Program-made: the position numbers and the translations under genes
IMG/VR virus record: IMGVR_UViG_3300005529_000066
Span: 1 to 40,123 of that record
Source: a virus
Direction: 5' to 3' (one strand)
Length of the DNA: 40,123 bases
Shown: piece by piece, positions 474 through 40,123 of the stretch
Layout: every line of letters starts with the position of its first letter
Numbering within the stretch: position 1 is the stretch's first letter
Notes under the pieces: model-generated
What the model saw: the letters and a program-made list of their open reading frames with translations, nothing else
What the model was told of the DNA's origin: nothing
The model's database searches: none

Positions 474-517
474 CCTCACTCACCCCTGACATCCCTGACA
501 TCCCAATAACAATCGCC

Positions 518-769
518 ATGTTCGAACATCTCTTCACCTGTGCGCTCTGCGAGCGGCCGGTCAACGACTATCCGAACCGGAACGGCCGTGATCGTCATTT
601 GGCGCCGCTCTGCAAGGGCTGCGAGGGCGAATACAGCAAAGGCGTCGGAGCACCGAAAGCTGGGAGCTTCATGGATAGGCGGCGCGTCGTACAGATCGCG
701 GCGCTGTCAAACGCTCTGCTCTCGATGGCTCACTACATCCGTTGGGAGCAACGCTATGGCAGCGCGTGA
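518..769 (+). CDS. Small Cys-rich (zinc-ribbon-like) protein, 83 aa
   Basis: ATG 518. Two CxxC pairs (CALC ... CKGC). Coding-like codon usage. First gene after the GY-repeat gene. Confidence 0.6.
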   Translation: MFEHLFTCALCERPVNDYPNRNGRDRHLAPLCKGCEGEYSKGVGAPKAGSFMDRRRVVQIAALSNALLSMAHYIRWEQRYGSA

Positions 770-998
770 TTACGAGGCTGCGCCGGCATCGGAGACGCTT
801 GGGCTCGTCGGGATAATTCAAGGGCTGGCGAACGATCTTGCCGAACTGCGTGAAGGCAAGATCAGCACCAATGATGCAATCGCGCGCTCGATGCTGGCGA
901 AGCAGATTTTCAACGGCGTGCGGCTTTACCTGAACGGAACGAAGCTGCTCACCGAAAACGCCAAACAAGTGCCAGCGCTAACGCAGGATCAACAGTAA
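756..998 (+). CDS. Hypothetical protein, 80 aa
   Basis: ATG 756 is preceded by GGGAG. The upstream part of track ORF 540..998 overlaps 518..769 out of frame, so the internal ATG was chosen. The stop overlaps the next start (TAATG). Confidence 0.55.
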   Translation: MAARDYEAAPASETLGLVGIIQGLANDLAELREGKISTNDAIARSMLAKQIFNGVRLYLNGTKLLTENAKQVPALTQDQQ

Positions 999-1252
999 TG
1001 CCCGACAAGAGCCTAGAAGTGTTCCGCCGCGAGGCATGGGTTGCCTACCGAGCCAACCATTTCAGCGACCAGCAACTTGCGCTGATCATCAGCGACCTCC
1101 AGCGCGGATTAGAGATCGCGCGAAATGCTGATCTTGGTCGTATCCTTGTTGGATGGTTTGCGATCGAGCTTTCGTCCGCCGAAAGCATTCGAGACGCGCG
1201 GGCTCGTGACCGACGAGAATCCTCCCTGACGACAGCAGAGCAAAAGCCGTGA
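998..1252 (+). CDS. Hypothetical protein, 84 aa
   Basis: ATG 998 overlaps the upstream TAA. Coding-like codon usage. Confidence 0.6.
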   Translation: MPDKSLEVFRREAWVAYRANHFSDQQLALIISDLQRGLEIARNADLGRILVGWFAIELSSAESIRDARARDRRESSLTTAEQKP

Positions 1253-1423
1253 TCAGCGCACGTCCTCAACCGGCACATCGAGCCGCAGCACGAGCCGGAT
1301 CAGCTTGGCGATCGGCTCCGGCGGTCCTTTGGCTGCGTAGTTCTGCGCGGTCCGGCGTGAGACGCCAAGCCACTGACCCGCACCAACCTGTGTTAGGCCG
1401 AGCTTGTCGATGGCGTCGCAATA
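1253..1423 (-). pseudogene. Start-less helix-turn-helix (XRE/Cro-like) gene remnant
   Basis: The minus frame reads YCDAIDKLGLTQVGAGQWLGVSRRTAQNYAAKGPPEPIAKLIRLVLRLDVPVEDVR*. An in-frame TAG lies at 1424-1426, and there is no ATG/GTG/TTG until late in the frame. Track ORF 1249..1440 (+) is its antisense shadow. The remnant abuts the 5' end of the C5-MTase gene. Confidence 0.4.
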
Positions 1424-1462
1424 CTATCGCAACCTGTTAACCGCCACTGAGCAGGAACCGAA

Positions 1463-2893
1463 GTGATTACCTACCTCTCCGTTTGCAGCGGCATCGAGGC
1501 GGCCACAGCGGCATGGCATCCGCTCGGCTGGTCGCCGTTTGCGTTCGCGGAGATCGAGGCGTTTCCGTCTGCCGTGCTGTCGCACCACTACGGTAGCAAT
1601 CTCATCGGCGAGCCTCTTTCACACAACGCGCCGCCTAACCTCGGCGACATGAACGGTTTCAAGGACTGGCCTGATGCAGCTATCGATGTTCTCGTCGGAG
1701 GAACGCCCTGCCAGTCCTTCTCGGTCGCAGGACTTCGCAAAGGCTTGGCTGACCCGAGAGGCAACCTCGCCGTCGTCTATCTTGCAATCGCTGACCGCTA
1801 TCGCCCCGAGTGGATCATTTGGGAGAACGTCCCCGGCGTCTTGTCGTCGGAGGGAGGACGGGATTTTGGAGCCATTGTCGGAGGGATGGTCGAACTCGGG
1901 TATTGCCCGGCTTGGCGAGTGCTTGACGCTCAATACGTGCGAGTGGACGGATTTGGACGGGCTGTCCCTCAGCGACGACGGCGTGTGTTCGTTGTCGGAC
2001 ATCTTGGAGACTGGCGCCGTGCCGCAGCGGTACTTTTTGAGCGCGAAAGCCTGCAAGGGCATTCTGCGCCGCGCCGCCAAGCGGGGGAAGGAATTGCCCC
2101 GACAATTAGCGCGCGCCCTACAGGCGGTGGCGGACTCGGAACCGACTTCGACTGCGACGGCGGGCTGATCGCCGGAACGCTTGGGCGGCGTTCGGCAGAT
2201 CATCCGAGCGGCCTGAAGTCGGAATCGGAGTTTGTCGTTGCCGTTCCTGACATCTCGCACTGCCTCAATGCTGGCGGCATGGGCAGGCAAGATTACGAGA
2301 CCGATACCGTGATCGCGCACGCGCTGCGAGCTGACGGCTTCGACGCGAGCGAGGACGGGACGGGACGCGGCACGCCGATCGTTCCTGTAGACATCACCAA
2401 TGGCATTCTCGGCGACGGTGTTGCGGGCACTCTTGAGCACGCGCAGCACAAGAGCAATCGCGGGCTTGGAGTTCTCGCCTTCGACACGACGCAGATCACC
2501 AGCAAGACGAACCGCTGCCAGCCACAGCCGGGCGGCCCGTGCCATCCGCTCGCGGCGGGGGCACATGCGCCCGCCATCGCGCAGCCCGTCGCCGACACGA
2601 TCACTGCACATTGGGAGCGCAGCAAGGGCGCCAAGGCTGGAAACCAAGTTGGCCTACTCAATCCGATCATTACGCCCGGCTGGGCCGTGCGCCGCCTCAC
2701 CCCACTCGAATGCGAGCGCCTGCAAGGCTTCCCCGATGGCTACACCGCTGTTCCGTTTCGCGGCAAGCCTGCTGCCGATGGCCCTCGCTATAAGGCGCTC
2801 GGCAACAGCATGGCGGTCAACTGCATGCGCTGGCTAGGATGGCGGATTGAGCTCGTTTCATCGCTAACCACTACTCAAGGGAAAGAACCATGA
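1463..2893 (+). CDS. DNA (cytosine-5)-methyltransferase, 476 aa
   Basis: GTG 1463 follows GAGCAGGA. Diagnostic C5-MTase motifs are present: I (VCSGIEA), IV (GGTPCQSFSVAG), VI (ENVPGV), VIII (QRRRRVFVVG), IX (RRLTPLECERLQGFP) and X (YKALGNSMAVN). Confidence 0.95.
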   Translation: MITYLSVCSGIEAATAAWHPLGWSPFAFAEIEAFPSAVLSHHYGSNLIGEPLSHNAPPNLGDMNGFKDWPDAAIDVLVGGTPCQSFSVAGLRKGLADPRGNLAVVYLAIADRYRPEWIIWENVPGVLSSEGGRDFGAIVGGMVELGYCPAWRVLDAQYVRVDGFGRAVPQRRRRVFVVGHLGDWRRAAAVLFERESLQGHSAPRRQAGEGIAPTISARPTGGGGLGTDFDCDGGLIAGTLGRRSADHPSGLKSESEFVVAVPDISHCLNAGGMGRQDYETDTVIAHALRADGFDASEDGTGRGTPIVPVDITNGILGDGVAGTLEHAQHKSNRGLGVLAFDTTQITSKTNRCQPQPGGPCHPLAAGAHAPAIAQPVADTITAHWERSKGAKAGNQVGLLNPIITPGWAVRRLTPLECERLQGFPDGYTAVPFRGKPAADGPRYKALGNSMAVNCMRWLGWRIELVSSLTTTQGKEP

Positions 2894-3108
2894 GCGTCTT
2901 CGTCGATTACCGGCACCTTCCTGAAAAGACGCGCAATGCACTGGTCGATCTCGAAATCTTCATCGGGGAGATGGACGGCAAGACCATCGGCACTCCGACT
3001 GATTCTAATACCTTTATCGACGAAGGCACGGTAGATGCCGACGACGCTGTGAAGGCGTTCAACGTGATTGTCGCCGCCCTGACCAGTGGTCAACAAAACC
3101 ATGAATGA
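2890..3108 (+). CDS. Hypothetical acidic protein, 72 aa
   Basis: ATGA overlap with the MTase stop. Coding-like codon usage. Confidence 0.55.
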   Translation: MSVFVDYRHLPEKTRNALVDLEIFIGEMDGKTIGTPTDSNTFIDEGTVDADDAVKAFNVIVAALTSGQQNHE

Positions 3109-3316
3109 CCTTGTTGTAACCGAAGGTATCTCGGGAACATGGTTCTATCACCTGTCCCACAACGCGCCGAAGCCGCAACAGCAGAGCGCCCTTTGCGGTG
3201 CGCGCGTGATGCACACGAACATGCCGCGCGACGCTTGGGGCACCGTGACCCATATCGGCGAACGCTGGTGCAAAAAATGCGAAGCGCTAGCACAATCGGG
3301 AGAGCCCCGTGAGTGA
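3101..3316 (+). CDS. Hypothetical protein, 71 aa (alternative GTG start 3086)
   Basis: ATG 3101 overlaps the upstream stop (ATGAATGA). CKKC pair near the C-terminus. Confidence 0.5.
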   Translation: MNDLVVTEGISGTWFYHLSHNAPKPQQQSALCGARVMHTNMPRDAWGTVTHIGERWCKKCEALAQSGEPRE

Positions 3317-3623
3317 CGCAGAAATGACTGATCCGAAAACCTGTAGTCCCCAGGCATGGAGCATCGCCAGCTTGTACAGCTCTGTACTCGGCGACTCTCA
3401 AGCGCGCGGCCTGGCTGAGTACATTGATGCCGCGCTCTCCGGCCTGCGCGCCGAGAATGAGCGGCTGACGGCAGCGCTCAAGAGTGCGAGCGCGCAGTGC
3501 GGAAACGTCATCTTCAATTGCGAGCAGCGGCCCGCGGACAATGCCCGGCACCTCTCATCGTGGCGCGGCGTCAAGGAATTCTGCGACGCGACCCTAAGCA
3601 TTCATGAGCGGGAATCGAAGTGA
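3309..3623 (+). CDS. Hypothetical protein, 104 aa
   Basis: GTG 3309 overlaps the end of the upstream gene. The central region looks coiled-coil. The stop overlaps the next GTG start. Confidence 0.5.
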   Translation: MSDAEMTDPKTCSPQAWSIASLYSSVLGDSQARGLAEYIDAALSGLRAENERLTAALKSASAQCGNVIFNCEQRPADNARHLSSWRGVKEFCDATLSIHERESK

Positions 3624-4171
3624 AGCTGAGCCGCACATGGGCGATGCCGTCGCCAGAGACGTTCTCGATCAAGCCGATCCGAGAGCTGATCGAGCGTTAT
3701 CTATCGGACGGCGTGTGGATTGATCCGTTCTGTCGAAACAGCGTCTTCAAGGGCGCCTGCGCCTACACTAACGACCTCAATCCGAAATTCGCCGGCACGC
3801 ACAACATGGACGCGCTCGATTTCCTCAAGTCCCTGCCGGCGGACAGCGTCGATGGCATCCTGTTCGATCCGCCGTTCTCCCCCAGACAGGTGGTGGAAGC
3901 CTATCAGGGCTTCGGGCCAGCCGACACGACGCGCCGCTTCTATAGCTCTCGCAAGCGCGAGGCTGCGCGGGTCCTGAAGATGGGTGGAATTGCGATTGTG
4001 TGCGGCTGGAATTCCCTGGGGCTCGGCGCAAAGAACGGAATGGAGCTCGAAGAGGTCTTGATGGTGAACCACGGCGACCAGAACGACACGATCGTCACGG
4101 TCGGTCGCAAGGTCGCGCCCAAGCTTGACTTCGCCGCGCCGGCTCAGCTCCCCGAATTGTTAACACCCTGA
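3620..4171 (+). CDS. Orphan amino (N6-adenine or N4-cytosine) DNA methyltransferase, 183 aa
   Basis: GTGA overlap with the upstream gene. An AdoMet-site-like IDPFCRNS is followed by a catalytic DPPF (ILFDPPFSPRQ, the motif IV family DPPY/F/W). The N-terminus TWAMPSPETFSIKPI is typical of small phage methylases. Target specificity is unknown. Confidence 0.7.
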   Translation: MKLSRTWAMPSPETFSIKPIRELIERYLSDGVWIDPFCRNSVFKGACAYTNDLNPKFAGTHNMDALDFLKSLPADSVDGILFDPPFSPRQVVEAYQGFGPADTTRRFYSSRKREAARVLKMGGIAIVCGWNSLGLGAKNGMELEEVLMVNHGDQNDTIVTVGRKVAPKLDFAAPAQLPELLTP

Positions 4172-4181
4172 GAGCAGGAAC

Positions 4182-4391
4182 ATGAGCGACTGGCGACCGA
4201 TCGAGACCGCGCCGAAGGACGGAAGCGACACCCTGCTCTACTGGCCCTTGGCCGGGGCGTCCGCAGATCGTCCCCGCATTAGGATCGGCTACTGGCGCGA
4301 TCCGCACGGCTGGGTTTGGCAGGATCGCGCGGTCCGAAGCTATTCGAGTTTCCCGACGCACTGGATGCCCCTCCCGGAGCCACCGCAATGA
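4182..4391 (+). CDS. DUF551-like phage protein, 69 aa
   Basis: MSDWRPIETAPKDG ... THWMPLPEPP pattern. RBS GAGCAGGA. The N-terminus is paralogous to the gene at 7440. Confidence 0.65.
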   Translation: MSDWRPIETAPKDGSDTLLYWPLAGASADRPRIRIGYWRDPHGWVWQDRAVRSYSSFPTHWMPLPEPPQ

Positions 4392-4672
4392 CCCCCGCCG
4401 CGCTCGAGCGCGAGAAGCCGCTCGCCAAGGACAAGCTATACGTCACCGACGCCGAGCTGATCCGGCTCATCGGAGCCCCGCGCGAGAAGACCCGAAAGAT
4501 GATCAACGCCTTGGACGCTATGCCGAATAGCGGCTTCCCGAAGAAAAACAAAATGTGGGGGGACAGAAGGCATTGGCCCTCTGTCAAAGCCTACTTTGAG
4601 CGCATGGAACAGCGTAGAATGGCGTCCTCATCCAATCAGCGGGGATCCCATGGCAGGCATGCCGAAGTTTGA
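4388..4672 (+). CDS. Putative excisionase / recombination directionality factor, 94 aa
   Basis: ATGA overlap with the upstream gene. It lies immediately 5' of int and overlaps its start. DKLYVTDAELIRLIG... looks like a DNA-binding helix. The call rests on position only. Confidence 0.4.
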   Translation: MTPAALEREKPLAKDKLYVTDAELIRLIGAPREKTRKMINALDAMPNSGFPKKNKMWGDRRHWPSVKAYFERMEQRRMASSSNQRGSHGRHAEV

Positions 4673-5876
4673 GAATGCGCCGGGGCTGAAGGTGCGCGCG
4701 AGCCGCACCGGAACGTTCGTCGCCTATTGGCTGGCGCGCGCGGACTGTGTCAAGCAGGGCTACAAGATGAAGTATTTCCCGCTCTGGAAGGGTGTTGATC
4801 CGACTCCAGAGGAGCGGCTGACCGTCTCCGAGGCGTGCGAGTCCCTACAGTACGAAATGCTCGCCTGGGCCGCTGGCGGCATCGACGGCGCATCGCACTT
4901 CAATGGAAGCGTGAGCAGCCTGATCTTCTGCTACACGCACGACAAGGACTCGCCGTTCAAGAAGCTGCGCTTCAAGTCGCGCAAGAACTACGCCGAATTC
5001 ATGAAGCGGATCGAGGCCGATCACGGCGACGAGTTCATCGCAAACCTCAAGGCGCGGGACATGCTGCGCTGGCACGCGGCATGGAAAGAGCGCGGCGTGA
5101 CGATGGCGCACTCACTGATGCGCATGTTTCGCGGGCTGCTGAGCTTCGGCATGACGATCCTCGATGACGAGCACTGCACGCACCTCTCAACGGTTCTCGG
5201 CAAGATGCGGTTCGAGATGGGCAAGCCGCGCACCGAGCGGCTGACCGCCGAGATGGCGAACGCCGTCCGAGCGCTCGCACACCAGAAGGGCTTGCACTCG
5301 ATCGCGCTCGCTCAGGCGTTCCAGTTTGAGGGGATGCTACGGCAGAAAGACGTGATTGGGAGCTGGGAGCCACTGACCGAGCCTGGCCCGTCTTTCGCGA
5401 CCTACCGAGACATGAAGTGGCATCGCGGCCTGCTGTGGTCCGAGATCGATGACAACCTGATCCTTCGCCACGTCACCAGCAAGCGGCAGAAGCCGATTGA
5501 GATCGACCTGAAGCTTGCGCCTATGGTGATCGAGGAATTCGACCGCATCCGCTCCGAGCTCGGCGCGCTCCCGAAGTTCGGACCAGTCGTGGTCTACGAG
5601 AGCACCGGCCGCCCCTACTCCGAGGAATACTTCCGCCAGTTCTGGCGCGAGATCGCGGACGAGTGCGGCATCCCCAAGACCGTGCGCAATCAGGACAGCC
5701 GAGCCGGCGCAATCAGCGAGGCGACCGATGCCGGCGTTCCGCTCGAGCACATCCGCCACGCGGCGACACACTCCGACATCGCGACCACGCAACGCTACTC
5801 GCGCGGCTCAGCGGAGAAGACCGCGACCGTGCTGACGATGCGCGCGGCGCACCGGAACAAAGGGGGAAACCAGTGA
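4650..5876 (+). CDS. int: Tyrosine recombinase / phage integrase
   Basis: C-terminal catalytic region RNQDSRAGAISEATDAGVPLEHIRHAATHSDIATTQRYSR (R...HxxR...Y signature). The start is ambiguous: TTG 4596, ATG 4650 or ATG 4659. Confidence 0.9.
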   Translation: MAGMPKFENAPGLKVRASRTGTFVAYWLARADCVKQGYKMKYFPLWKGVDPTPEERLTVSEACESLQYEMLAWAAGGIDGASHFNGSVSSLIFCYTHDKDSPFKKLRFKSRKNYAEFMKRIEADHGDEFIANLKARDMLRWHAAWKERGVTMAHSLMRMFRGLLSFGMTILDDEHCTHLSTVLGKMRFEMGKPRTERLTAEMANAVRALAHQKGLHSIALAQAFQFEGMLRQKDVIGSWEPLTEPGPSFATYRDMKWHRGLLWSEIDDNLILRHVTSKRQKPIEIDLKLAPMVIEEFDRIRSELGALPKFGPVVVYESTGRPYSEEYFRQFWREIADECGIPKTVRNQDSRAGAISEATDAGVPLEHIRHAATHSDIATTQRYSRGSAEKTATVLTMRAAHRNKGGNQ

Positions 5877-6071
5877 CGAGCCAAAACCGCGAACATGCGA
5901 TGGGTAGCAAATGGAGCAAGGCCGCTGACTATATGCTGGTATTCCAGTTTCTCTTGCTGATGACCAGTAAATTTTTTGTTGAAAGATTTCTAAGGGCTTG
6001 CTCCCCGTCGCGCTACCGATCCGCACCATCGCGTACCGACGTGACCGCCTCGTGCGGCGTGGAGGGGTGAG
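5877..6071. other. Candidate attP region
   Basis: A 195-bp gap lies directly 3' of int. It has a locally AT-rich core (about 5921-5995) in an otherwise >60% GC genome, and no coding-like ORF. This is the canonical attP position. The core sequence is not identifiable without the host attB. Confidence 0.35.
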
Positions 6072-6332
6072 ATGAAAGACCCAGCAATCCTGTTCTGCAA
6101 GCCGCAGGCGATCGACGATGCGAGCAAGGCGGCGCTGACCAAGGCCGGCGTGATCGTGGTTGAGGTCGCCGAGCCCCATGACGTGAAGCTCGTCCGACCG
6201 ATGGCCGATCTTCCAGGCTCAACGCTTCTGCGGATCGCAGCCGAGACGATCATGAAAAACGGGACTGACAGCACGCGCGAGCGGTTCGGTTGGCGCGTGT
6301 GCGAAGCCCTGACCACCGAGAAAGACGCCTGA
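6072..6332 (+). CDS. Hypothetical protein, 86 aa
   Basis: RBS GGAGGGG upstream of ATG 6072. Coding-like codon usage. Confidence 0.6.
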   Translation: MKDPAILFCKPQAIDDASKAALTKAGVIVVEVAEPHDVKLVRPMADLPGSTLLRIAAETIMKNGTDSTRERFGWRVCEALTTEKDA

Positions 6333-6348
6333 CAACAGGTTAGCAGGA

Positions 6349-6762
6349 ATGACATTCGCATCCAAAACCAAGGTCCCGGCCGAGCAGACGAAGACCGAGA
6401 TTGAGCGCACACTCAAGCGCTACGGCGCCGCACGCTTTGCCTACTTCACTGAACCCGACCGCGCGATCATTGTGTTCGAGGCGCATGAGCGGCGGCTGCG
6501 GTTCGATCTTCCGTTGCCGGCCGGCGAGACCGATCGGGAGATGCAGGTTGTCCGTGCGAAGTGGCGCGCGCTGCTGCTGTGCATCAAAGCCAAACTTGAG
6601 GCCGTTGAGAGCAAGATCGAGACGTTCGAGGAGGCATTCCTCGCTCATGTCGTCATGCCGGACGGCCGCACCGTTGCCGAACATGCGCAGCCGCGCATTG
6701 CATCCGCCTACGAGAGCGGCGAGGTGCAAGCTCTCTTGCCGCCGCCGAAGGGAAAATCATGA
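6349..6762 (+). CDS. Hypothetical prophage protein, 137 aa
   Basis: RBS AGCAGGA. Compact globular-looking sequence (…KWRALLLCIKAKLEAVESKIETFEEAFLAHVVMPDG…). Function unknown. Confidence 0.65.
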   Translation: MTFASKTKVPAEQTKTEIERTLKRYGAARFAYFTEPDRAIIVFEAHERRLRFDLPLPAGETDREMQVVRAKWRALLLCIKAKLEAVESKIETFEEAFLAHVVMPDGRTVAEHAQPRIASAYESGEVQALLPPPKGKS

Positions 6763-6968
6763 AGACGATCACAACCACCGGATTTGCTGGCGTGAACATT
6801 TGGACAGTGCCGCCGCACATCATGGCTTGGTCAACTCGCGGAACGGCTGGACAGGCTCGGAAGGCAGTCGCTGAAAACTGGCCCGACGGTGCGACCGAAG
6901 CCGAACGATGGAAAGCAGCATACCGCGCCGGGGTTCGCATTCGCAAAGTTCAGATCGCGACCCGCTAA
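6759..6968 (+). CDS. Hypothetical protein, 69 aa
   Basis: ATGA overlap with the upstream gene. Confidence 0.55.
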   Translation: MKTITTTGFAGVNIWTVPPHIMAWSTRGTAGQARKAVAENWPDGATEAERWKAAYRAGVRIRKVQIATR

Positions 6969-6983
6969 CCGGAGAGGTGAACC

Positions 6984-7412
6984 ATGAAAGCGATTTCGCT
7001 GTGGCAACCGTGGGCCTCACTCTGGCTCACCGACGCCAAGATCCATGAGACGCGGCACTGGCCGACCTCGCATCGCGGCTGGCTTCTCGTGCATGCCGCG
7101 AAGCGCCAGATCGACGATTACGACGGCGATCGGATTGACGAAATTTGCGAAGGCATCTGGGGCAACCATTGGGGCCAAGACCTGCCGCGTGGCGCACTGA
7201 TCGGCACGGTCAATCTCGTTGACTGCGTGCGCGTCGAGACCATGCCGGCCGGGCACCACGAAACGGACGACTACGAATGCGGCAACTTCGCAGACGGTCG
7301 CTATGCATGGCGGCGGGATGCATTCCGGTTATTCCAGCAGCCGATCCCATACCGCGGGCAGCAGGGCTTCTTCGAAGTTCCGGACGACATCCTGCCGAAG
7401 CTCGCAGCCTGA
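6984..7412 (+). CDS. ASCH (PUA-like) domain protein, 142 aa
   Basis: N-terminus MKAISLWQPWASLWLTDAKIHETRHWPTSHRGWLLVHAAK matches the ASCH pattern (S/L-xQPWAxLI..G.K..E.R.W.T..RG.LLIHA). RBS GGAGAGG. Confidence 0.8.
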   Translation: MKAISLWQPWASLWLTDAKIHETRHWPTSHRGWLLVHAAKRQIDDYDGDRIDEICEGIWGNHWGQDLPRGALIGTVNLVDCVRVETMPAGHHETDDYECGNFADGRYAWRRDAFRLFQQPIPYRGQQGFFEVPDDILPKLAA

Positions 7413-7439
7413 TTACTGTTACCGGGGAAGGAACCATAA

Positions 7440-7751
7440 ATGAGCGATTGGAAACCGATCGAGACCGCGCCCGAAAATCCGACTGTGCGCTATCTCGTGG
7501 TGGACTGCCTCGGGAACGTGACCCTCACTCAGCACCCGCGCGCTACGCTGATGCACGCGGGATGGGCAGAAGCGTGGGCGCCGGTCCCTGAGTGGATCAA
7601 ACCACAGCCGCCGATCGAACCCTATAGCCCACAGAAAGGCGGACGCGAGATCGCGGCGATGCACGCTCGGGAGTTCAAGCGTCTGGTGAAGGGCCACGGC
7701 ATCGCGCACGAGACGATCGAAGGCGTCAAGGTCGTGCGGTCGCAACGTTAA
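7440..7751 (+). CDS. DUF551-like phage protein, 103 aa (paralogue of 4182..4391)
   Basis: MSDWKPIETAPENP..., compared with MSDWRPIETAPKDG at 4182. RBS GGGGAAGGA. Confidence 0.6.
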   Translation: MSDWKPIETAPENPTVRYLVVDCLGNVTLTQHPRATLMHAGWAEAWAPVPEWIKPQPPIEPYSPQKGGREIAAMHAREFKRLVKGHGIAHETIEGVKVVRSQR

Positions 7752-7770
7752 TCAATCAGGAGCGATAAAG

Positions 7771-7968
7771 ATGGATGTTGTTCTTCCCGATCGAGAAACT
7801 GCGGTCAAACGTGGATGGACACATCAGGTCCAATGGATCGATGACGGCAAGCCGTGCTTCGTCCGATGCAGGTCAGGACGCGAAGCTGACGCGCGGGCCG
7901 ACAGGCTGAAAGCGATCGGCGCAAAGCCCGTCGTCTTCGATCTGCGCGACGCGCTGCAACTTCACTAG
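7771..7968 (+). CDS. Hypothetical protein, 65 aa
   Basis: RBS CAGGAG upstream of ATG 7771. Confidence 0.5.
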   Translation: MDVVLPDRETAVKRGWTHQVQWIDDGKPCFVRCRSGREADARADRLKAIGAKPVVFDLRDALQLH

Positions 7969-7991
7969 TTACTGCTCTCGAGGAGGTAGCC

Positions 7992-8189
7992 ATGAAAGAC
8001 GAACGCTATCCGCCGCCGTCGAAGCTGGACCCGGCCCTCAGGCTCCAGCGCATTGAGGAGAAGCTATGCGAGTGCAGTGCGGTTGGAAGCGGCGAAGGAC
8101 ATTCGTCCGATTGTCCAGCCAAGAAGTTCGACCGCATTCCGCGCAACATGACGGCCGCCGCGGCGCTGGCGCAGCTCGGCTATCGCTAA
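7992..8189 (+). CDS. Hypothetical protein, 65 aa
   Basis: RBS GAGGAGG upstream of ATG 7992. Its stop lies inside the left 16-bp direct repeat. Confidence 0.5.
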   Translation: MKDERYPPPSKLDPALRLQRIEEKLCECSAVGSGEGHSSDCPAKKFDRIPRNMTAAAALAQLGYR

Positions 8190-8197
8190 CTGCAAAT
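8182..8197 (+). repeat. Left copy of 16-bp direct repeat ATCGCTAACTGCAAAT
   Basis: 15/16 identical to 8572-8587. Contains the TAA stop of gene 7992..8189. Confidence 0.9.
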
Positions 8198-8571
8198 CAG
8201 GAACGCCGGGTGACACACCCAATCGCACGCACCGAACCGTTATGCTTCTGCCATGTGGACGGATACCCGAAGCCGGCGGCGACAAGAAGTTCAAGGTGGT
8301 CGCGGGCGGCGAGCTCTAAGGAGAGAACATGTTCAGCGGAGCGGAGTCGAAGGGAAGCCCGGTAAATGAGAAAACCCGTGGCCCCGCGCCTTCGCGCTAC
8401 AGCAGGGGGCGGCTACGCCCGACAGGGAAGCGGCATAGCGGCCAAGGCATGGTCATCACGACCATGCCTTTGCTGCGCGGCGAACTTCTCGGATGTCGGC
8501 TACGTCGCAAAGCCGCAGTGGAGCCCGACCGGCCATCGCGCTTCGCACCCTCCGGCTCTGCTCCGCTGAGC
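8198..8571. mobile_element. Putative secondary insertion (MITE-like element or structured-RNA moron) between duplicated gene-junction sequences
   Basis: Flanked by the 16-bp direct repeats. All forward frames have visibly poorer GC3 (~70% by my count) and rare codons. Contains a long inverted repeat and hairpins. Confidence 0.4.
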
Positions 8572-8573
8572 AT
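8329..8573 (+). ncRNA. Inverted-repeat-bounded ~245-nt module; candidate structured RNA (alternatively TIRs of a MITE, or ORF 8329..8589, 86 aa)
   Basis: 8333-8354 pairs with 8548-8569 over 22 positions: 19 WC, 2 GU and 1 mismatch. The helix can be extended to 8329/8573. There is an internal perfect 11-bp hairpin at 8444-8470. The RBS+ATG TAAGGAGAGAACATG (8317-8331) would be partly sequestered. Confidence 0.3.
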
Positions 8574-8587
8574 CGTTAACTGCAAAT
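8572..8587 (+). repeat. Right copy of 16-bp direct repeat ATCGTTAACTGCAAAT
   Basis: 15/16 identical to 8182-8197. Supplies the first 2 nt (AT) of the ATG (8586-8588) of the next gene. Confidence 0.9.
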
Positions 8588-8816
8588 GAAGGATAATGAC
8601 GCCATGACGAAACTTCGCGAAGGTGAAAGCTACTCGCACGAAGGCCCGGAATGTCCGAAGTGCGGCTTCACCTTCATGCCCGACGACTCGATCTACTACG
8701 ACGAGAACCGCTACACCGAGGAGACGTGCCAGGAGTGCCAGACAAAATTCAAGGTTGAGGTCTACCACTCCACGAGCTGGACCTGCACGATCCCCGAACC
8801 GGCTGCGGCTGGTTAA
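8586..8816 (+). CDS. Zinc-ribbon protein, 76 aa
   Basis: CPKCG ... CQECQ pairs. Coding-like codon usage. Confidence 0.6.
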   Translation: MKDNDAMTKLREGESYSHEGPECPKCGFTFMPDDSIYYDENRYTEETCQECQTKFKVEVYHSTSWTCTIPEPAAAG

Positions 8817-8840
8817 GCCTCAGGAAACAGGGAGAGCGAT

Positions 8841-9026
8841 ATGCTAGACGCCGCATGGATGCACCGCGATGAGCGCCCGCTCGGCACGCGGCTGAGCGAT
8901 ATGAAGGCGCATGCCGAGCACTGTCGGCGCGAGGCTGTCCGCATGGAGCGCGAGGCGTCGCGCCTTCGCAACGAAGCGAACGAGACTGAGCGGCAGATCG
9001 AAAATCTGCGGCGCGCTCATAGTTAG
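8841..9026 (+). CDS. Hypothetical coiled-coil protein, 61 aa
   Basis: RBS GGGAGAG upstream of ATG 8841. Confidence 0.5.
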   Translation: MLDAAWMHRDERPLGTRLSDMKAHAEHCRREAVRMEREASRLRNEANETERQIENLRRAHS

Positions 9027-9241
9027 ATAGAGTCGAACCGATGGTATGGAAGACGAAACGCGGGAAGTGGGACTGGCGCAGATTCCTCACCGCGGAAGAG
9101 GCGTCGCTGATCCGTGCTGCCGATCGTGGTGGCGCGAAGAAACAGCGCCGTGACCCGTCCGGCCGGTGACACCGCACATAGTTCCCATCCCTGCGCCAGC
9201 GCCGGCATCAGCGCGAATACCAGGGCGAGCGCGCGGATCAT
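9023..9241 (-). CDS. Small secreted protein, 72 aa (last gene of lysis cassette)
   Basis: ATG 9241 in ATGA overlap with the stop of 9238..9594. N-terminus MIRALALVFALMPALA/QG looks like a Sec signal peptide. GC3 falls off in the distal half. Confidence 0.4.
   Translation of the reverse strand: MIRALALVFALMPALAQGWELCAVSPAGRVTALFLRATTIGSTDQRRLFRGEESAPVPLPAFRLPYHRFDSI
9041..9169 (+). CDS. Possible small ORF, 42 aa (MVWKTKRGKWDWRRFLTAEEASLIRAADRGGAKKQRRDPSGR)
   Basis: ATG 9041 to TGA 9167-9169. Below the track threshold. Overlaps the convergent minus ORF 9023..9241, so at most one of the two is likely real. Confidence 0.25.
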   Translation: MVWKTKRGKWDWRRFLTAEEASLIRAADRGGAKKQRRDPSGR

Positions 9242-9594
9242 GGGTGCGGCCTCATCGTCGCCCACTCGGCTAGCTTGCCGCCGACGTACACCACAAGCCC
9301 GCCAACAACGCCGGCCGCCGTATAGAGCCAGCCAGCAAGGCGCGCGGCGCCTCGAGCTTCTGCCCGCTTCTCCCGATAGTCATCCGTCAGCGGCTTCATC
9401 TCGGCGATATCGCGGGCGACGTTGCGCATGGCCTCGCTAGTCGCCACCACGATATCATGGACCTTGCGATGCTCCTCCGTGCTGGCTTCCTGAAGCCTGT
9501 GAAAATCTTCGCGCAGGTTCTCAACTTCGGCCTGCAAGATGCCGATGGCGACGAAGAGTCGGTTTTCCTCTACGGCCATCAGGGCGCTTCCCAT
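9238..9594 (-). CDS. Coiled-coil protein with C-terminal transmembrane anchor, 118 aa (lysis-cassette associated)
   Basis: Helical N-terminal part. C-terminal TM segment LAGWLYTAAGVVGGLVVYVGG. RBS AAAGGAG upstream. Confidence 0.6.
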   Translation of the reverse strand: MGSALMAVEENRLFVAIGILQAEVENLREDFHRLQEASTEEHRKVHDIVVATSEAMRNVARDIAEMKPLTDDYREKRAEARGAARLAGWLYTAAGVVGGLVVYVGGKLAEWATMRPHP

Positions 9595-10128: not shown

Positions 10129-10476
10129 TTAAACCTTCGGCCGCAGCCGAGCCCAAATGGTCAGAGCCGAGAATGCCATCGCGGCGATCATAACGTTCGT
10201 GGGCGTGAAGTAAGCCGAGATGAAACCATTCGCCTTGGCCGCAAATTCCGGATCACCGGAAAGGGTGGCGATCAGGTCGGTCCCCTTTCCGAGCGCAACT
10301 CCGACAGCGCTGACCAGGATCGTCACCTTCTGCAGCAGAATGACCTGCATGCCGCGCTCGGCGGCGACTATGCGCTGCCATGTCGTTCCGGTCGCGGCGC
10401 GGTATCGGACATAAAATCCGATACCGACCCACAGAACGACGGCGGCGGCGGCCAGAGTGAATGCAAGGCTGATCAT
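10129..10476 (-). CDS. Multi-pass membrane protein, holin candidate, 115 aa
   Basis: ATG 10476 in ATGA overlap with the lysozyme stop. About three hydrophobic helices (MISLAFTLAAAAVVLWVGIGFYV...; ...NVMIAAMAFSALTIW). The upstream part of track ORF 10129..10740 is out-of-frame overlap with the lysozyme gene. Confidence 0.6.
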   Translation of the reverse strand: MISLAFTLAAAAVVLWVGIGFYVRYRAATGTTWQRIVAAERGMQVILLQKVTILVSAVGVALGKGTDLIATLSGDPEFAAKANGFISAYFTPTNVMIAAMAFSALTIWARLRPKV

Positions 10477-11006
10477 GTTTTCCTCGCGAATATGGACAGG
10501 ATTGCGGAGAGCCAGCCCGACGGCGGCGCCGGCTGCGGAGATGGTTTCGGCTCGAGTGGCGGGGGCGGCGGAAAGACGTAAGGCGTCTTGAACTGAGCAA
10601 CCTCGCCGCGGCGCCGCCCTAGGATTTCCGGTGGCTTGCTCCACATCAGGAAGGCGTCGGCCGCGCCGGCCATGTCGACCGAATTGATGCGCTTGGCGAC
10701 GGTCGAGCGAGAGAAGCCGGACGGGCCAATGTTGTAGCAAAGGCTCACGCAGGCATCGAACTGGTTTTGGCTGAGTGGCACCTTAACGGCGCTGTTCACC
10801 GCCGTCTCGTATTTCACGAGGTCGAGCGCGAAAATCTCGTCGCATTCGGCCTGCGTGATGGTCAGGCCGGGAGTTACTTCGGGAGGTCCGGCCGAGCTAG
10901 TGTGACCTACCCCGATCGTAAGGACACCCACGGAATCGCGATAGGCTTTGAGCCTAACCCCTTCGCGCGCCATGAGCCGCTTACGGCCTTCATCGCTCGT
11001 CTTCAT
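10473..11006 (-). CDS. Phage lysozyme (GH24-type endolysin) with Pro-rich linker and hydrophobic C-terminal tail
   Basis: EGVRLKAYRDSVGVLTIGVGHT catalytic-region motif. ATG 11006 in ATGA overlap with the upstream gene (alternative GTG 11015). C-terminus PPPPPLEPKPSPQPAPPSGWLSAILSIFARKT. Confidence 0.9.
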   Translation of the reverse strand: MKTSDEGRKRLMAREGVRLKAYRDSVGVLTIGVGHTSSAGPPEVTPGLTITQAECDEIFALDLVKYETAVNSAVKVPLSQNQFDACVSLCYNIGPSGFSRSTVAKRINSVDMAGAADAFLMWSKPPEILGRRRGEVAQFKTPYVFPPPPPLEPKPSPQPAPPSGWLSAILSIFARKT

Positions 11007-36599: not shown

Positions 36600-36812
36600 T
36601 CATGCGCGCGCCTCAGCGGCGAGCTCGGCCAACGTCTCGAGCCGAATATCCACACCCTTAGCGGCGGCGATCCGGATCAGCGCAGACCAATGCGGAGCCG
36701 GAATGCCGTTCGGCCGCGTGCGCCATCCGCTGACCGTCGAGAGCGACAGTGAGAGCGCGTCCGCAACTTCGCCGGTGCCGCCGAGGGCGTCGATGATCGA
36801 GCCTGGGGTCAT
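36600..36812 (-). CDS. Cro/YdaS-like HTH regulator, 70 aa
   Basis: GGTGEVADALSLSLSTVSGWRTRPNGIPAPHW is the typical Cro/YdaS-type HTH. ATG 36812 was chosen because the track start at 36833 lies inside the promoter. The ATG is 8 nt after the -10, so the mRNA is probably leaderless. Confidence 0.75.
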   Translation of the reverse strand: MTPGSIIDALGGTGEVADALSLSLSTVSGWRTRPNGIPAPHWSALIRIAAAKGVDIRLETLAELAAEARA

Positions 36813-36820
36813 AGCGCCGC

Positions 36821-36849
36821 TTAATATTCGCACCGTGCGAATAAGTCAA
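36821..36849 (-). promoter_or_regulatory. Early-left promoter with operator O1 in the spacer
   Basis: The minus strand reads TTGACT (36849-36844) - 17 nt - TATTAA (36826-36821). The spacer holds the palindrome ATTCGCACCGTGCGAAT (36826-36842). Confidence 0.65.
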
Positions 36850-36903
36850 GCTGTCGCAAATCGCGAAACGACTTTCCCGGTCGACCGTGGTGCAATCTGG
36901 CCC

Positions 36904-37167
36904 ATGGTGGATTCCCCGAAAGTGATCGGGCCGCGGCTCAAGGAGCTGCGCATCGCGCTCGGCTTCAAGCGGCAACTCCACTTTGCGCGCGAAATCGGCA
37001 TCGAGCCGCAAACCTACAATCCTTGGGAAAAAGGCAAGCGCCCCCTCACCTTTGAGGGCGCCTGCCTGATCCGCAAGAAGTTCCGCGTGCCGCTCGACTA
37101 CCTGTTTTTTGGCGATGTCGGCGAGCTTCCAGTGCGGTTGCACCGCAAGCTCGAGAAGGCCGCATGA
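36904..37167 (+). CDS. XRE-family HTH repressor (CI-like), 87 aa
   Basis: IGPRLKELRIALGFKRQLHFAREIGIEPQTYNPWEKGKRPLTFEGACLIRKKFRVPLDYLFFG is a classic HTH_XRE. Divergent from the Cro-like gene. No SD; TGCAAT lies 7 nt upstream of the ATG. Confidence 0.85.
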   Translation: MVDSPKVIGPRLKELRIALGFKRQLHFAREIGIEPQTYNPWEKGKRPLTFEGACLIRKKFRVPLDYLFFGDVGELPVRLHRKLEKAA

Positions 37168-37361
37168 CGCGCTTGGCCGCAGCGGCGATCGTTGCGGCGG
37201 CGCTGGCCGGGTGCGCGCTGTCCCCTGAAGACCGTGCTGCCCTGCGCGAGATGTCGGCCCAGGTCGGCGGCGCGGTCGCCGCCTCCCAGCCCGATCGCCC
37301 GCCCGAGATCAATTGCACCACCACGACGAACGGACCAATCGCGCGCACGAATTGCCGCTGA
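37164..37361 (+). CDS. Small lipoprotein, 65 aa (superinfection-exclusion candidate)
   Basis: ATGA overlap with the repressor gene. Signal plus lipobox MTRLAAAAIVAAALAGC. Confidence 0.7.
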   Translation: MTRLAAAAIVAAALAGCALSPEDRAALREMSAQVGGAVAASQPDRPPEINCTTTTNGPIARTNCR

Positions 37362-37364
37362 ATA

Positions 37365-37385
37365 AAATTCGCACCGCGCGAATTT
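37365..37385. promoter_or_regulatory. Operator O2
   Basis: AAATTCGCACCGCGCGAATTT contains ATTCGCA-N3-CGCGAAT, a variant of the O1/O3 palindrome. Confidence 0.6.
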
Positions 37386-37390
37386 AGTTG

Positions 37391-37419
37391 TTGACTTATT
37401 CGCAAGGTGCGAATTATAT
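37391..37419 (+). promoter_or_regulatory. Early-right promoter with operator O3 in the spacer
   Basis: TTGACT (37391-37396) - 17 nt - TTATAT (37414-37419). The spacer holds ATTCGCAAGGTGCGAAT (37398-37414). Same architecture as the early-left promoter. Confidence 0.65.
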
Positions 37420-37443
37420 GGCCCCAGCACACAGGGGCCGCAC

Positions 37444-37773
37444 ATGCCTTACCACGATCTCCTCAACGCCGACGGCTCGGTCAACGCCGCCGAATACGAC
37501 AAAATCCTCGAAAACCGCGTCACCCATGAGGTGAACCTGCGCCGCTGCAACGAGGCGCGCATCCACGCGCCGCACCATGTTCCGCTCGGCTGCGTCGCGG
37601 TGTTCTACGCGATGATGGTCGACCAGATGCGGCTCCCGGAACTGCCGGCCGCCGAGATCGATCGCATCCGCCGCCAGCAGACCGTGGCGCTCAATGACTG
37701 GGTCGGCGCCATGTCGGTCGCTGCCGCGAAGCAGCGGCGCGCCATGCTGCGGGTGGAGCGCAAGGCGTCATGA
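37444..37773 (+). CDS. Hypothetical early protein, 109 aa
   Basis: First ORF downstream of the early-right promoter. Coding-like codon usage. Confidence 0.6.
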   Translation: MPYHDLLNADGSVNAAEYDKILENRVTHEVNLRRCNEARIHAPHHVPLGCVAVFYAMMVDQMRLPELPAAEIDRIRRQQTVALNDWVGAMSVAAAKQRRAMLRVERKAS

Positions 37774-37946
37774 ACACTCGCACCGAGGCCGAGATGATCT
37801 ACTTCGAAGCGCACAACATGCGCAAGGAAGACGCGATCAGCCTGATCGAGGCTCGGCTCAAGCATCTGTTCGTCAACGGCCAGAAGTCAGGGATCGAGGA
37901 AGCCGCGCAGAGCATTCGTGCGGTCGGCGAACGGCAGGTGGCGTGA
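37770..37946 (+). CDS. Hypothetical protein, 58 aa (MNTRTEAEMIYFEAHNMRKEDAISLIEARLKHLFVNGQKSGIEEAAQSIRAVGERQVA)
   Basis: ATGA overlap upstream and TGATG overlap downstream. Below the track threshold. Confidence 0.5.
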   Translation: MNTRTEAEMIYFEAHNMRKEDAISLIEARLKHLFVNGQKSGIEEAAQSIRAVGERQVA

Positions 37947-38716
37947 TGAGTGATCTTCTGCAACGCCTTTCGGCGCCATTCGATCCTGACCGCGTGTCAT
38001 GGCGCGTCGGGCCGACCAACGGCAACAAGACGAAGGGAATGGCCCTCGCCTACATCGACGCCCGCGACGTGATGGCGCGGCTTGATGAAGCCTGCGGCGT
38101 TGGCGGCTGGCAATGCTCCTATCCCCACGCCAACGGAAAGACTGTCTGCAGCATCGGGATCAAGATCGGCGACGAATGGATCTGGAAAGCCGATGGCGCT
38201 GGCGATACCGACATGGAAGCCGAGAAAGGCGCGCTCAGCGACGCATTCAAGCGCGCTGCCGTCCGTTGGTCTATCGGCCGCTATTTGTACGACATGCCAT
38301 CACCCTGGGTCGAGATCGAGCAGCACGGCAAGTCGTATTCCATCAAGGACGGCGAATTAGTGAAGCTCGCGCGGCTCCTCAGTCACGCGGCGCCGGTCGA
38401 GATCAAGCGGCCGAATCCCCACGTCACCAAGCCGGCTGACATTGTCCCGGATGTCGAATACGACGACAACGGCCAGCCGGTTGACAATATCCCCTCAGGC
38501 GACCCGAGCATTGAACGGTTGCCGAAAGCAAAAGCTCGCGAGGATTTCGCGTCGGCACAGAACGAACTCCGGTCAACCGTCACCATCAAGCAGCTCGAGG
38601 ACTGGGGCGCGCGCAACGCGAACCGCGTCGAAACCTTCCCGGCTGATTGGGCTGCAATCCTGCGCGGCATCTACATCGAGCATCGCGACAGCCTGCGCAA
38701 CGGGAAGGCAGCATGA
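37946..38716 (+). CDS. Rad52/Sak-type single-strand annealing protein, 256 aa
   Basis: LSAPFDPDRVSWRVGP...ALAYIDARDVMARLDE...GWQ...EKGALSDAFKRAAVRWSIGRYLY is the signature of the Rad52/22 family. ATG 37946 was chosen; the upstream track extension is out-of-frame overlap. Confidence 0.9.
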   Translation: MSDLLQRLSAPFDPDRVSWRVGPTNGNKTKGMALAYIDARDVMARLDEACGVGGWQCSYPHANGKTVCSIGIKIGDEWIWKADGAGDTDMEAEKGALSDAFKRAAVRWSIGRYLYDMPSPWVEIEQHGKSYSIKDGELVKLARLLSHAAPVEIKRPNPHVTKPADIVPDVEYDDNGQPVDNIPSGDPSIERLPKAKAREDFASAQNELRSTVTIKQLEDWGARNANRVETFPADWAAILRGIYIEHRDSLRNGKAA

Positions 38717-39114
38717 GCCGCGCGACTGTCATCATCAACGGCAATGCCGCTCGATTGCGAGTCGCCAAGTGGGCATCAAGTGCTCCCTATGGCACGCGCG
38801 TCGAGTTTCGGCAGACGAAGCGTTCAATCCCTCAAAACGATCGCATGTGGGCCATGCTGACGGATGTTGCCGCACAGAAAGAGCACTGCGGCCGCAAGTA
38901 TTCACCCGAGATTTGGAAGACCTTGTTCCTCCACGCCTGCGGCCGGGAAATGCAATTCGTTCCGACGCTCGACGGGACTTCGTTCATGCCGCTCGGCTAT
39001 CGGTCGTCCGAGCTCTCCAAGCAGGAGATGAGTGCGCTGATTGATTTTATCGGGTGCTGGGGCGCACAAAACGGCGTCGTCTTCCACGATCAGGAAGCGG
39101 AACGCGCGGCATGA
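38713..39114 (+). CDS. ninB: NinB/Orf-family recombination protein, 133 aa
   Basis: ATGA overlap. KRSIPQNDRMWAMLTDVAAQ motif (RSxxQNxxxWA.L.DIA.Q) and SSELSKQEMSALIDFI. Confidence 0.8.
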   Translation: MSRATVIINGNAARLRVAKWASSAPYGTRVEFRQTKRSIPQNDRMWAMLTDVAAQKEHCGRKYSPEIWKTLFLHACGREMQFVPTLDGTSFMPLGYRSSELSKQEMSALIDFIGCWGAQNGVVFHDQEAERAA

Positions 39115-39437
39115 GACGCGATTTCCCCGCCAAGGTCAAAGCTGCAGCGGCGCTCCGCGCTGGCGGCCACTGTGAAGCTTGCACTCGCAAACTCATGACC
39201 GGCGACTATCACTATGACCACGATACGCCGGATGCAATGGGCGGTGAGCCGACGCTTGAGAACTGCAAGGTGCTCTGCCGCTCATGTCATTCGGTCAAGA
39301 CGCTCCGCCAGGATGTTCCGCGGATCGCGAAAGCCAAAAGGCGCGAGCGCAATCGGTTGGGGATTAAGAAGCCGCGCACGATAACCCGGTGGCGCCGTTT
39401 TAATGGCGACGCGGTTTATGCCGAGCGTAATCGTTAG
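39111..39437 (+). CDS. HNH endonuclease, 108 aa
   Basis: ATGA overlap. CEAC...HYDHDTPDAMGG...NCKVLCRSCHSVKT (HNH with two Cys pairs). Confidence 0.9.
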   Translation: MRRDFPAKVKAAAALRAGGHCEACTRKLMTGDYHYDHDTPDAMGGEPTLENCKVLCRSCHSVKTLRQDVPRIAKAKRRERNRLGIKKPRTITRWRRFNGDAVYAERNR

Positions 39438-39803: not shown

Positions 39804-40123
39804 TACTTAGAGGCGAGCCAGCGAAGCTGGCGAGCCAATACGGCTACGGCTCCGGCTACGGCTCCGGCTACGGCTCCGGCTACGGCTCCGGCTCCGGCTC
39901 CGGCTCCGGCTACGGCTCCGGCTCCGGCTCCGGCTCCGGCTACGGCTCCGGCTCCGGCTACGGCGACGGCGACGGCTACGGCTCCGGCTCCGGCTACGGC
40001 TACGGCTACGGCTACGGCTACGGCGACGGCGACGGCTACGGCTACGGCTACGGCTACGGCGACGGCGACGGCTACGGCGACGGCTACGGCGACGGCTACG
40101 GCGACGGCTACGGCGACGGCTAC
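39800..40123 (+). CDS. 5' part of Gly-Tyr/Ser/Asp repeat protein (continues at 1..473)
   Basis: GTG 39800 in GTGA overlap with the upstream stop; in-frame ATGs at 39776 and 39752 are also open. Reads VILRGEPAKLASQ-(YG/SG/DG)n to the last base. Not in the track because it has no stop inside the window. Confidence 0.7.
   Translation, partial: MILRGEPAKLASQYGYGSGYGSGYGSGYGSGSGSGSGYGSGSGSGSGYGSGSGYGDGDGYGSGSGYGYGYGYGYGDGDGYGYGYGYGDGDGYGDGYGDGYGDGYGDGY
39839..40123 (+). repeat. Coding tandem array of GGC-TAC / GGC-TCC / GGC-GAC hexamers (95 codons)
   Basis: Blocks run GYGS x4, GSGS runs, GYGY runs, then GYGD x4-5. The last 62 nt equal the first 62 nt of the window. Confidence 0.95.

Follow-up and report, generated by a model that had tools for sequence, protein, structure and literature searches.

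The IMG/VR record IMGVR_UViG_3300005529_000066 is the genome, about 40 kb, of a temperate phage of a soil bacterium, and the whole of it, 40,123 nt, was analysed here (the window). The identical sequence is present in three assemblies (Logan, JGI and ENA/NCBI), and the NCBI bin is a metagenome-assembled genome of Pseudolabrys sp. Many small genes on the + strand, from ~500 to 9200, make up the early operon, and two DNA methyltransferases and one tyrosine integrase are encoded among them; the lysis and structural genes follow it on the - strand. Inside this operon, between a gene for a 65-aa protein and a gene for a 70-aa protein, lies a stretch of ~390-396 nt that carries a long inverted repeat, a perfect hairpin near its centre and two copies of a 16-nt direct repeat. 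The inverted repeat and the sequence that it encloses form the element discussed here. The features of the locus, in window coordinates and with the basis of each assignment in brackets, are as follows.

7992..8189, + strand: upstream 65-aa early gene, VFB45_15325 (list of open reading frames (ORFs); coding-like G+C content at the first, second and third codon positions (GC1/2/3) and codon score)
8182..8197, no strand assigned: left direct repeat copy, ATCGCTAACTGCAAAT (repeat search)
8198..8328, + strand: spacer of 131 nt with no significant RNA structure
8318..8331, + strand: Shine-Dalgarno sequence AAGGAG, then ATG 8329, the start of ORF86 (sequence; both paired in the predicted fold, probabilities 0.96-1.0)
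8320..8354, + strand: 5' arm of the long-range helix, with core arm 8329-8354 (repeat search, fold, simulation)
8329..8589, + strand: ORF86, an 86-codon open frame running from arm to arm, probably no gene (searches, composition)
8444..8470, + strand: central perfect 11-bp hairpin with a 5-nt loop, arms 8444-8454 and 8460-8470 (repeat search, fold)
8548..8583, + strand: 3' arm of the long-range helix, with core arm 8548-8573, overlapping the right direct repeat (repeat search, fold)
8572..8587, no strand assigned: right direct repeat copy, ATCGTTAACTGCAAAT (repeat search)
8604..8816, + strand: downstream 70-aa zinc-ribbon gene, VFB45_15330, with start ATG 8604

The arms of the inverted repeat, 8329-8354 and 8548-8573, are 26 nt long, 85% complementary and separated by 193 nt. 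The 22 inner positions (8333-8354 with 8548-8569) form 19 Watson-Crick pairs, two G-U pairs and one mismatch, and four more pairs carry the helix to 8329/8573, exactly as an earlier reading of the sequence (the original prediction) had described it; further pairs extend it to 8320/8583. This repeat ranks first in a repeat search of the window and is the only one there with at least 22 of 26 Watson-Crick pairs, or at least 25 of 26 when G-U pairs are counted, and in first-order Markov simulations of 40 kb such repeats occur at 0.04 per window. All four arm mismatches are transitions. The 11-bp hairpin, which had also been noticed earlier, is centred on position 8457, 6 nt beyond the midpoint of the inverted repeat (8451), and extends with mismatches to 8438-8476; we estimate the chance of a perfect 11-bp hairpin in a 190-nt interior at ~6e-4. 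A decayed long palindrome was considered as the origin of the cassette and rejected on a comparison of its left and right interior (z = 0.6), and no third copy of the arm lies beside the left direct repeat.

When folded as + strand RNA, the segment 8320-8590 has a predicted free energy of -141.4 kcal/mol (z = -6.35), with a centroid structure close to that of minimum free energy, and the pairs of the closing helix have probabilities of 0.95-1.0. The predicted helix is ~28-31 bp long and consists of 21 contiguous pairs, four pairs past one mismatch and three to six outer pairs. It is predicted to provide near-continuous double-stranded RNA (dsRNA) of at least ~20 bp within a region that is probably transcribed, as is expected of an RNase III site. 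Ranked by GC-adjusted stability, the 270-nt + strand segment that starts at 8326 comes first of 1772, at -3.75 standard deviations; the next most stable segments of this length lie at 10171-10486 on the + strand and 36811-37576 on the - strand (-2.7 to -3.3 standard deviations, GC-adjusted). The corresponding - strand RNA folds less stably and is poorly defined (z -3.6), and the folds of both DNA strands are also weaker (z -3.9 and -4.2). The 136 nt upstream of the cassette are unstructured by the same measure (z +0.26). Neither a sigma-70-like promoter nor an intrinsic terminator was found in 7400-9400, so the insert is most likely read through in the early transcript. Comparison with Rfam, which had been proposed as a check of the insert, gave no match in the whole window at gathering thresholds, and over 7900-8900 at E <= 10 it gave only noise, namely tfoR at 16.7 bits (threshold 70) and a snoRNA model at 14.8 bits (threshold 88). 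ARAGORN detected no tRNA-like element.

The 5' arm of the helix coincides with the start of ORF86. The sequence TAAGGAGAGAACATG, located at 8317-8331, contains the consensus ribosome-binding site and ATG noted previously, and the predicted fold buries both the Shine-Dalgarno sequence and the ATG, in agreement with the earlier suggestion that the start would be sequestered in the long helix. Prodigal-type callers predict ORF86 in all three assemblies; PGAP places no gene between the flanking genes, whose locus tags are consecutive. No homologue of the ORF86 protein was found among ~15 billion predicted proteins, a search of 5.8 billion protein clusters returned only the query itself, and no Pfam or PHROG family was matched. 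A complete HMMER search of 1.84 billion representatives gave one extra match, a 433-aa protein (P0014) that is 40% identical over ORF86 residues 26-66. This was rejected as a relative: one weak match recurs seven times along a repetitive, junk-like ORF and so inflates the E-value. Its tandem repeats (CRPYGTRKHGLAIIATNMPSLRDSE...) resemble a translated DNA repeat array.

The composition of ORF86 points the same way as the searches. Its GC1/2/3 values are 0.61/0.62/0.70, compared with ~0.65/0.46/0.77 in the neighbours and most other genes checked. The third-position value of ~70% given in the original prediction is thus correct (0.70), and the flanking genes, described there as clearly higher, have 0.75 and 0.79; the clearer contrast is in GC2, which is 0.62 in ORF86 and 0.44-0.53 in the flanking genes. 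A codon-usage log-likelihood, trained on the long genes of the phage, gives ORF86 -0.098 per codon, where real genes average +0.35; 96% of in-frame gene segments score higher and 96% of off-frame segments score lower, as expected for non-coding sequence. The other frames of the insert, on both strands, score no better. An open frame of 90 codons at 63% GC has, by our estimate, a chance of ~8% per frame, and the ORF called as a gene at 7771-7968 also has a low codon score (0.05). The AlphaFold model of ORF86 has almost no secondary structure and a mean predicted local distance difference test (pLDDT) score of 58.7, which discriminates little for an orphan. From its sequence, then, the stretch is very probably non-coding, and the earlier doubt that ORF86 encodes a real protein appears justified. 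We caution that Prodigal-type callers annotate as a protein an 86-codon frame that very probably is not one.

The sequence just upstream of ORF86 differs in composition. A short frame ending ...GDKKFKVVAGGEL*, with its TAA at 8317-8319, had been likened to the tail of a lost gene, and the stretch 8242-8319 does have coding-like values (GC1/2/3 of 0.69/0.44/0.76 and a codon score of +0.215 per codon, over only 25 codons). No match to the peptide was found by tblastn against phages. The stretch may be what is left of the 3' end of a gene; since the Shine-Dalgarno sequence and ATG are good and the preceding 25 codons are coding-like, the left part of the intergenic stretch may come from a real gene junction.

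The two copies of the direct repeat are identical at 15 of 16 positions and were recovered at both places where the original prediction had put them, 8182-8197 and 8572-8587. Pairs matching at 15 of 16 positions within 500 nt arise at 0.43 per simulated window, with at least one in 30% of simulations, and about six further such pairs, not in tandem, are present in the actual sequence; a second copy of this AT-rich 16-mer in particular is expected at 0.01 per window. The possibility that the 16-mer or its 11-nt core serves as a recurrent junction linker in the phage was discarded (10 matches against 8.9 expected). The left copy contains the stop codon of the 65-aa gene, as had been observed. 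The right copy had been thought to supply the AT of the next gene's ATG at 8586, and this does not hold: all eight members of the 70-aa gene family start with MTKL/MxK in alignment with ATG 8604, which is therefore taken as the start of the downstream gene in place of 8586, and the NCBI annotation is also of the 70-aa form. An AAGGA Shine-Dalgarno sequence at 8590-8594 lies 9 nt upstream of ATG 8604. The proposed duplication of a 'stop-CTGCAA-ATG' junction is consequently wrong in detail, as it depends on a start at 8586 that the family does not use. Removal of one repeat copy together with the intervening sequence would leave TAA-N24-ATG with an AAGGA Shine-Dalgarno sequence, a junction normal for this operon. 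Because a repeat-to-repeat deletion would leave such a normal compact junction, an insertion is plausible, though unproven.

A duplication of 16 bp is long for a transposase footprint, and Campbell-type or relaxed homologous integration would fit better. At 37694-39437, near the right end of the window, lies a cluster of genes for an annealing protein of the Rad52/22 family, NinB and an HNH endonuclease. This recombination module could favour exchange at short homologies, and the presence of the Rad52 and NinB genes in the phage would favour the Campbell-type or relaxed homologous route.

Copies of the element were sought in several collections, and no second copy was found in any of them. BLASTN with 11-nt words left the element unmatched in 50,697 phage records, BLASTN against 72,556 plasmids gave no match either, and single arms gave only chance-level matches (E of at least 2) in 7.3 Gb of plasmids, none of them at a transposon end. 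The DNA searches of genomes and of IMG/VR used exact patterns only. IMG/VR scans with the hairpin, the arm consensus and a two-arm gapped pattern, in exact and degenerate form, gave zero matches, and patterns back-translated from ORF86 revealed no relative in IMG/VR or the JGI metagenomes. In 185,579 species genomes the arm consensus had four exact matches, all of single arms; these lie in unrelated lineages (Stellaceae, Terriglobales, Thiocystis and Anaerolineales), three of them apparently in coding sequence, and were set aside as chance.

Empty and filled sites were sought at 19 loci that carry relatives of the 65-aa or the 70-aa gene. Neither the element nor an analogous inverted repeat was present at any of the 19, and an empty site with a single ATCGYTAACTGCAAAT between the two genes, the arrangement expected under the original prediction, was found at none of them. 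The 65-aa gene has three related protein clusters (66-71% identity), and the next gene in its relatives encodes small membrane proteins or a methyltransferase, or is another gene that follows directly. One or two predicted membrane proteins of 38-48 aa are found in three loci after a 58-aa homologue (L012-L014) and in a fourth at 881-1027 (L021), and in the window the inverted-repeat spacer occupies the position where relatives of the 65-aa gene typically have tiny membrane proteins. In most cases, a relative of the 70-aa gene has a different gene upstream of it, either overlapping it or directly adjoining. On one phage-like contig (L003, 2651-4230) an RtcB RNA ligase gene directly follows the zinc-ribbon homologue. 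Both flanking genes sit at mosaic boundaries, and, going by the sequences retrieved, the element is lineage-specific, being absent beside all retrieved relatives of either flanking gene.

Taken together, these data lead us to favour, with a probability of roughly 0.4, a singleton, non-coding insert, bounded by inverted repeats, whose transcription as part of the early operon would produce an RNase III-type stem. To the observed repeats, hairpin, helix thermodynamics, non-coding composition and absence from relatives and databases, this reading adds three steps that we infer, namely origin by insertion, transcription and cleavage by RNase III. The core of the insert would be a cassette of 245-265 bp, from 8320/8329 to 8573/8583, inside the rightward early operon, and the early transcript would read through it. 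In the transcript the arms would pair into the ~28-31-bp helix, burying the Shine-Dalgarno sequence and ATG of a spurious ORF86, and a dsRNA stem of this length would be the kind of substrate that RNase III cuts. The consequence, if any, is by analogy with transcribed Correia elements and the intercistronic sites of T7 most likely a control of processing or stability that would uncouple the upstream cistrons from the downstream ones, which encode proteins of 70, 61 and 42 aa. The element is a one-off of ordinary parts.

Several observations weigh against this interpretation. The direct repeat is placed asymmetrically with respect to the inverted repeat, its left copy lying 131 nt from the left arm while its right copy overlaps the right arm, and taken alone it is only marginally significant. 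The element is known from a single sequence, and the flanking genes are adjacent in 0 of the 19 loci, so no empty site was observed. As evidence for a strand, the four non-Watson-Crick positions are weak, the + strand being favoured at three of them (p ~0.3, by our count). Folded by itself, the 193-nt interior is unremarkable (z -1.9 for the + strand, -1.0 for the - strand, and a centroid distant from the minimum-free-energy structure), so the fold is one long-range helix with a central hairpin and not a complex RNA. Finally, a strong Shine-Dalgarno sequence, an ATG and an 86-codon frame in a small gap are unlikely to coincide by chance, so that ORF86 may still be a real or recently decayed gene.

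The last point is the basis of a rival explanation that we consider unlikely, in which ORF86 is a genuine orphan gene for a small, very basic, disordered protein, its Shine-Dalgarno sequence and ATG being shut by the 5'-3' fold-back helix and opened by mRNA processing or by a ribosome finishing the 25-codon frame that stops at 8317-8319. The near-optimal spacing of AAGGAG from ATG 8329, the 86 open codons, the gene calls in three assemblies and a helix that covers exactly the Shine-Dalgarno sequence and ATG would all suit such a gene, and the low codon score is less telling when the called neighbour at 7771-7968 scores only 0.05. They have to be set against the absence of any homologue or family, the atypical GC2 and GC3, a codon score below that of nearly all in-frame segments, the omission by PGAP, an AlphaFold model that is nearly all coil, and the ~8% chance per frame of an open frame of about this length. 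A dedicated structured non-coding RNA gene, in which an RNase III stem would free a stable ~190-nt RNA acting as a small RNA, decoy or anti-defence agent, is quite improbable. The ensemble on the + strand is well defined, with five or six hairpins in a closed junction, and the transcribed strand gives a better fold than its complement or DNA; yet the stability resides in the closing helix, the interior having z -1.9 and a centroid that differs from the minimum-free-energy structure. The lack of an Rfam family beyond the two noise matches, of a tRNA-like element, of a promoter or terminator of its own and of homologues, and hence of covariation, argues in the same direction, and the structured non-coding RNA moron proposed in the original prediction finds no backing here.

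The other proposal made there, a miniature inverted-repeat transposable element (MITE) or an element resembling the Rhizobium-specific intergenic mosaic elements (RIMEs), fares better in anatomy than in distribution. Here the insert would belong to a MITE family with 26-bp terminal inverted repeats and would have transposed into the phage with a host-supplied transposase. MITEs have terminal inverted repeats around ~50-800 bp of non-coding sequence, and the element has such repeats (26 nt, 85%) around a hairpin-rich, non-coding interior, 245 bp in all; its arm mismatches are all transitions, as in a decaying repeat, and it is confined to this phage. On the other hand, no further copy was found in phages, plasmids, IMG/VR or the JGI metagenomes, the four genome matches to the arm consensus are single arms attributable to chance, and the ORF86 protein search, which would have caught mis-annotated in-frame copies, found none. 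Nor does a short target-site duplication abut both arms at 8329 and 8573, the left direct repeat being 131 nt away, and no transposase is encoded by the window ORFs scanned. We therefore regard a MITE as improbable. It is also doubtful that the insert is a functionless leftover of illegitimate or relaxed homologous recombination at a mosaic boundary, with repeats that are coincidental or neutral. The different mosaic contexts of the flanking genes in every relative, the Rad52-family annealing protein and NinB of the phage, the statistical weakness of the direct repeat alone and the gene-tail-like fragment before the cassette would be accounted for in this way, but an inverted repeat expected at 0.04 per window, a centred 11-bp hairpin and a rare 16-mer repeat (0.01 expected) would then have to fall within the same 400 nt. 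A long shot, finally, is a new kind of phage-borne RNA module, in which RNase III, acting on the closing stem, excises an RNA of ~190-250 nt from the early transcript, or that an orphan gene for a basic protein is shut by a hok-style fold-back, with the product serving as an anti-defence decoy or regulator delivered by insertion together with the 16-bp repeats.

Elsewhere in the window, both ends (1-113 and 39839-40123) consist of the same 6-nt tandem repeat, ACGGCG/ACGGCT, in 19 and 47 copies, and the contig probably represents a circular or permuted phage genome, opened by the assembler within a gene that contains repeats. In the segment 34640-34800, about seven copies of a 10-nt iteron, TGTGACGCTT, together with inverted GCGTCACA copies, come after an AT-rich stretch; this is a candidate replication origin, or a candidate array to which a partition protein or a repressor would bind. 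Between two palindromic operator-like sites at 37362-37419, AATTCGCAC-CGC-GCGAATT and ATTCGCA-AGG-TGCGAAT, lies a TTGACT...TATAT promoter-like sequence, next to an HTH_3 ORF, and this arrangement is a likely immunity switch.

Several known systems share parts of this architecture. The msr-msd region of retrons has terminal inverted repeats (a1/a2) that, like the arms described here, close an RNA of ~200 nt with small hairpins and one long hairpin; a retron was rejected, as the window ORFs scanned (the large ORFs) include no reverse transcriptase or RVT domain. An integron cassette with an attC site was likewise rejected, neither boundary sequence (GCTAACT and GTTAACT) fitting GTTRRRY, and the only recombinase seen when the integron context was checked is the phage-type tyrosine integrase, 2.3 kb upstream of the insert. 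A dif/Xer reading was also considered and dropped. The R-sites of T7 and sib of lambda resemble the element as dsRNA stems between early cistrons that are without a promoter or terminator of their own. These T7 and lambda RNase III sites are local hairpins of ~50-60 nt, whereas the stem predicted here is a long-range helix around 193 nt.

The mycobacteriophage mobile elements (MPMEs) MPME1 and MPME2 are also ultra-small, bounded by inverted repeats and located at phage gene junctions. MPMEs carry a small conserved ORF, whereas the present element has an orphan ORF and no known precise empty site. MPME1 is 439 bp long, has inverted repeats, lies at gene junctions and is absent from close relatives, and identical MPME copies occur in several phages, with 6 bp added at the left inverted repeat (PMC3029335). 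The phage records searched by BLASTN cover the MPME-carrying phages, and no match places the element among the MPMEs. The Correia elements of Neisseria, also called Neisseria miniature insertion sequences (NEMIS), are 100-155 bp long and duplicate a TA target; a single genome contains hundreds of them. In contrast, the element described here is ~245 bp long, has no duplication abutting its arms and is present as a single copy. It is similar to them in being small and non-coding, in its inverted repeats of ~26 bp and in its position between genes, and in both cases co-transcription would let the arms form a long dsRNA stem, here a predicted one; transcribed Correia copies are documented to be cut by RNase III at their terminal repeats (PMC10969869). 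If the stem in this phage is processed, the element would be another small inverted-repeat insert that rewires mRNA processing in a phage early operon, a tidy and unsurprising outcome.

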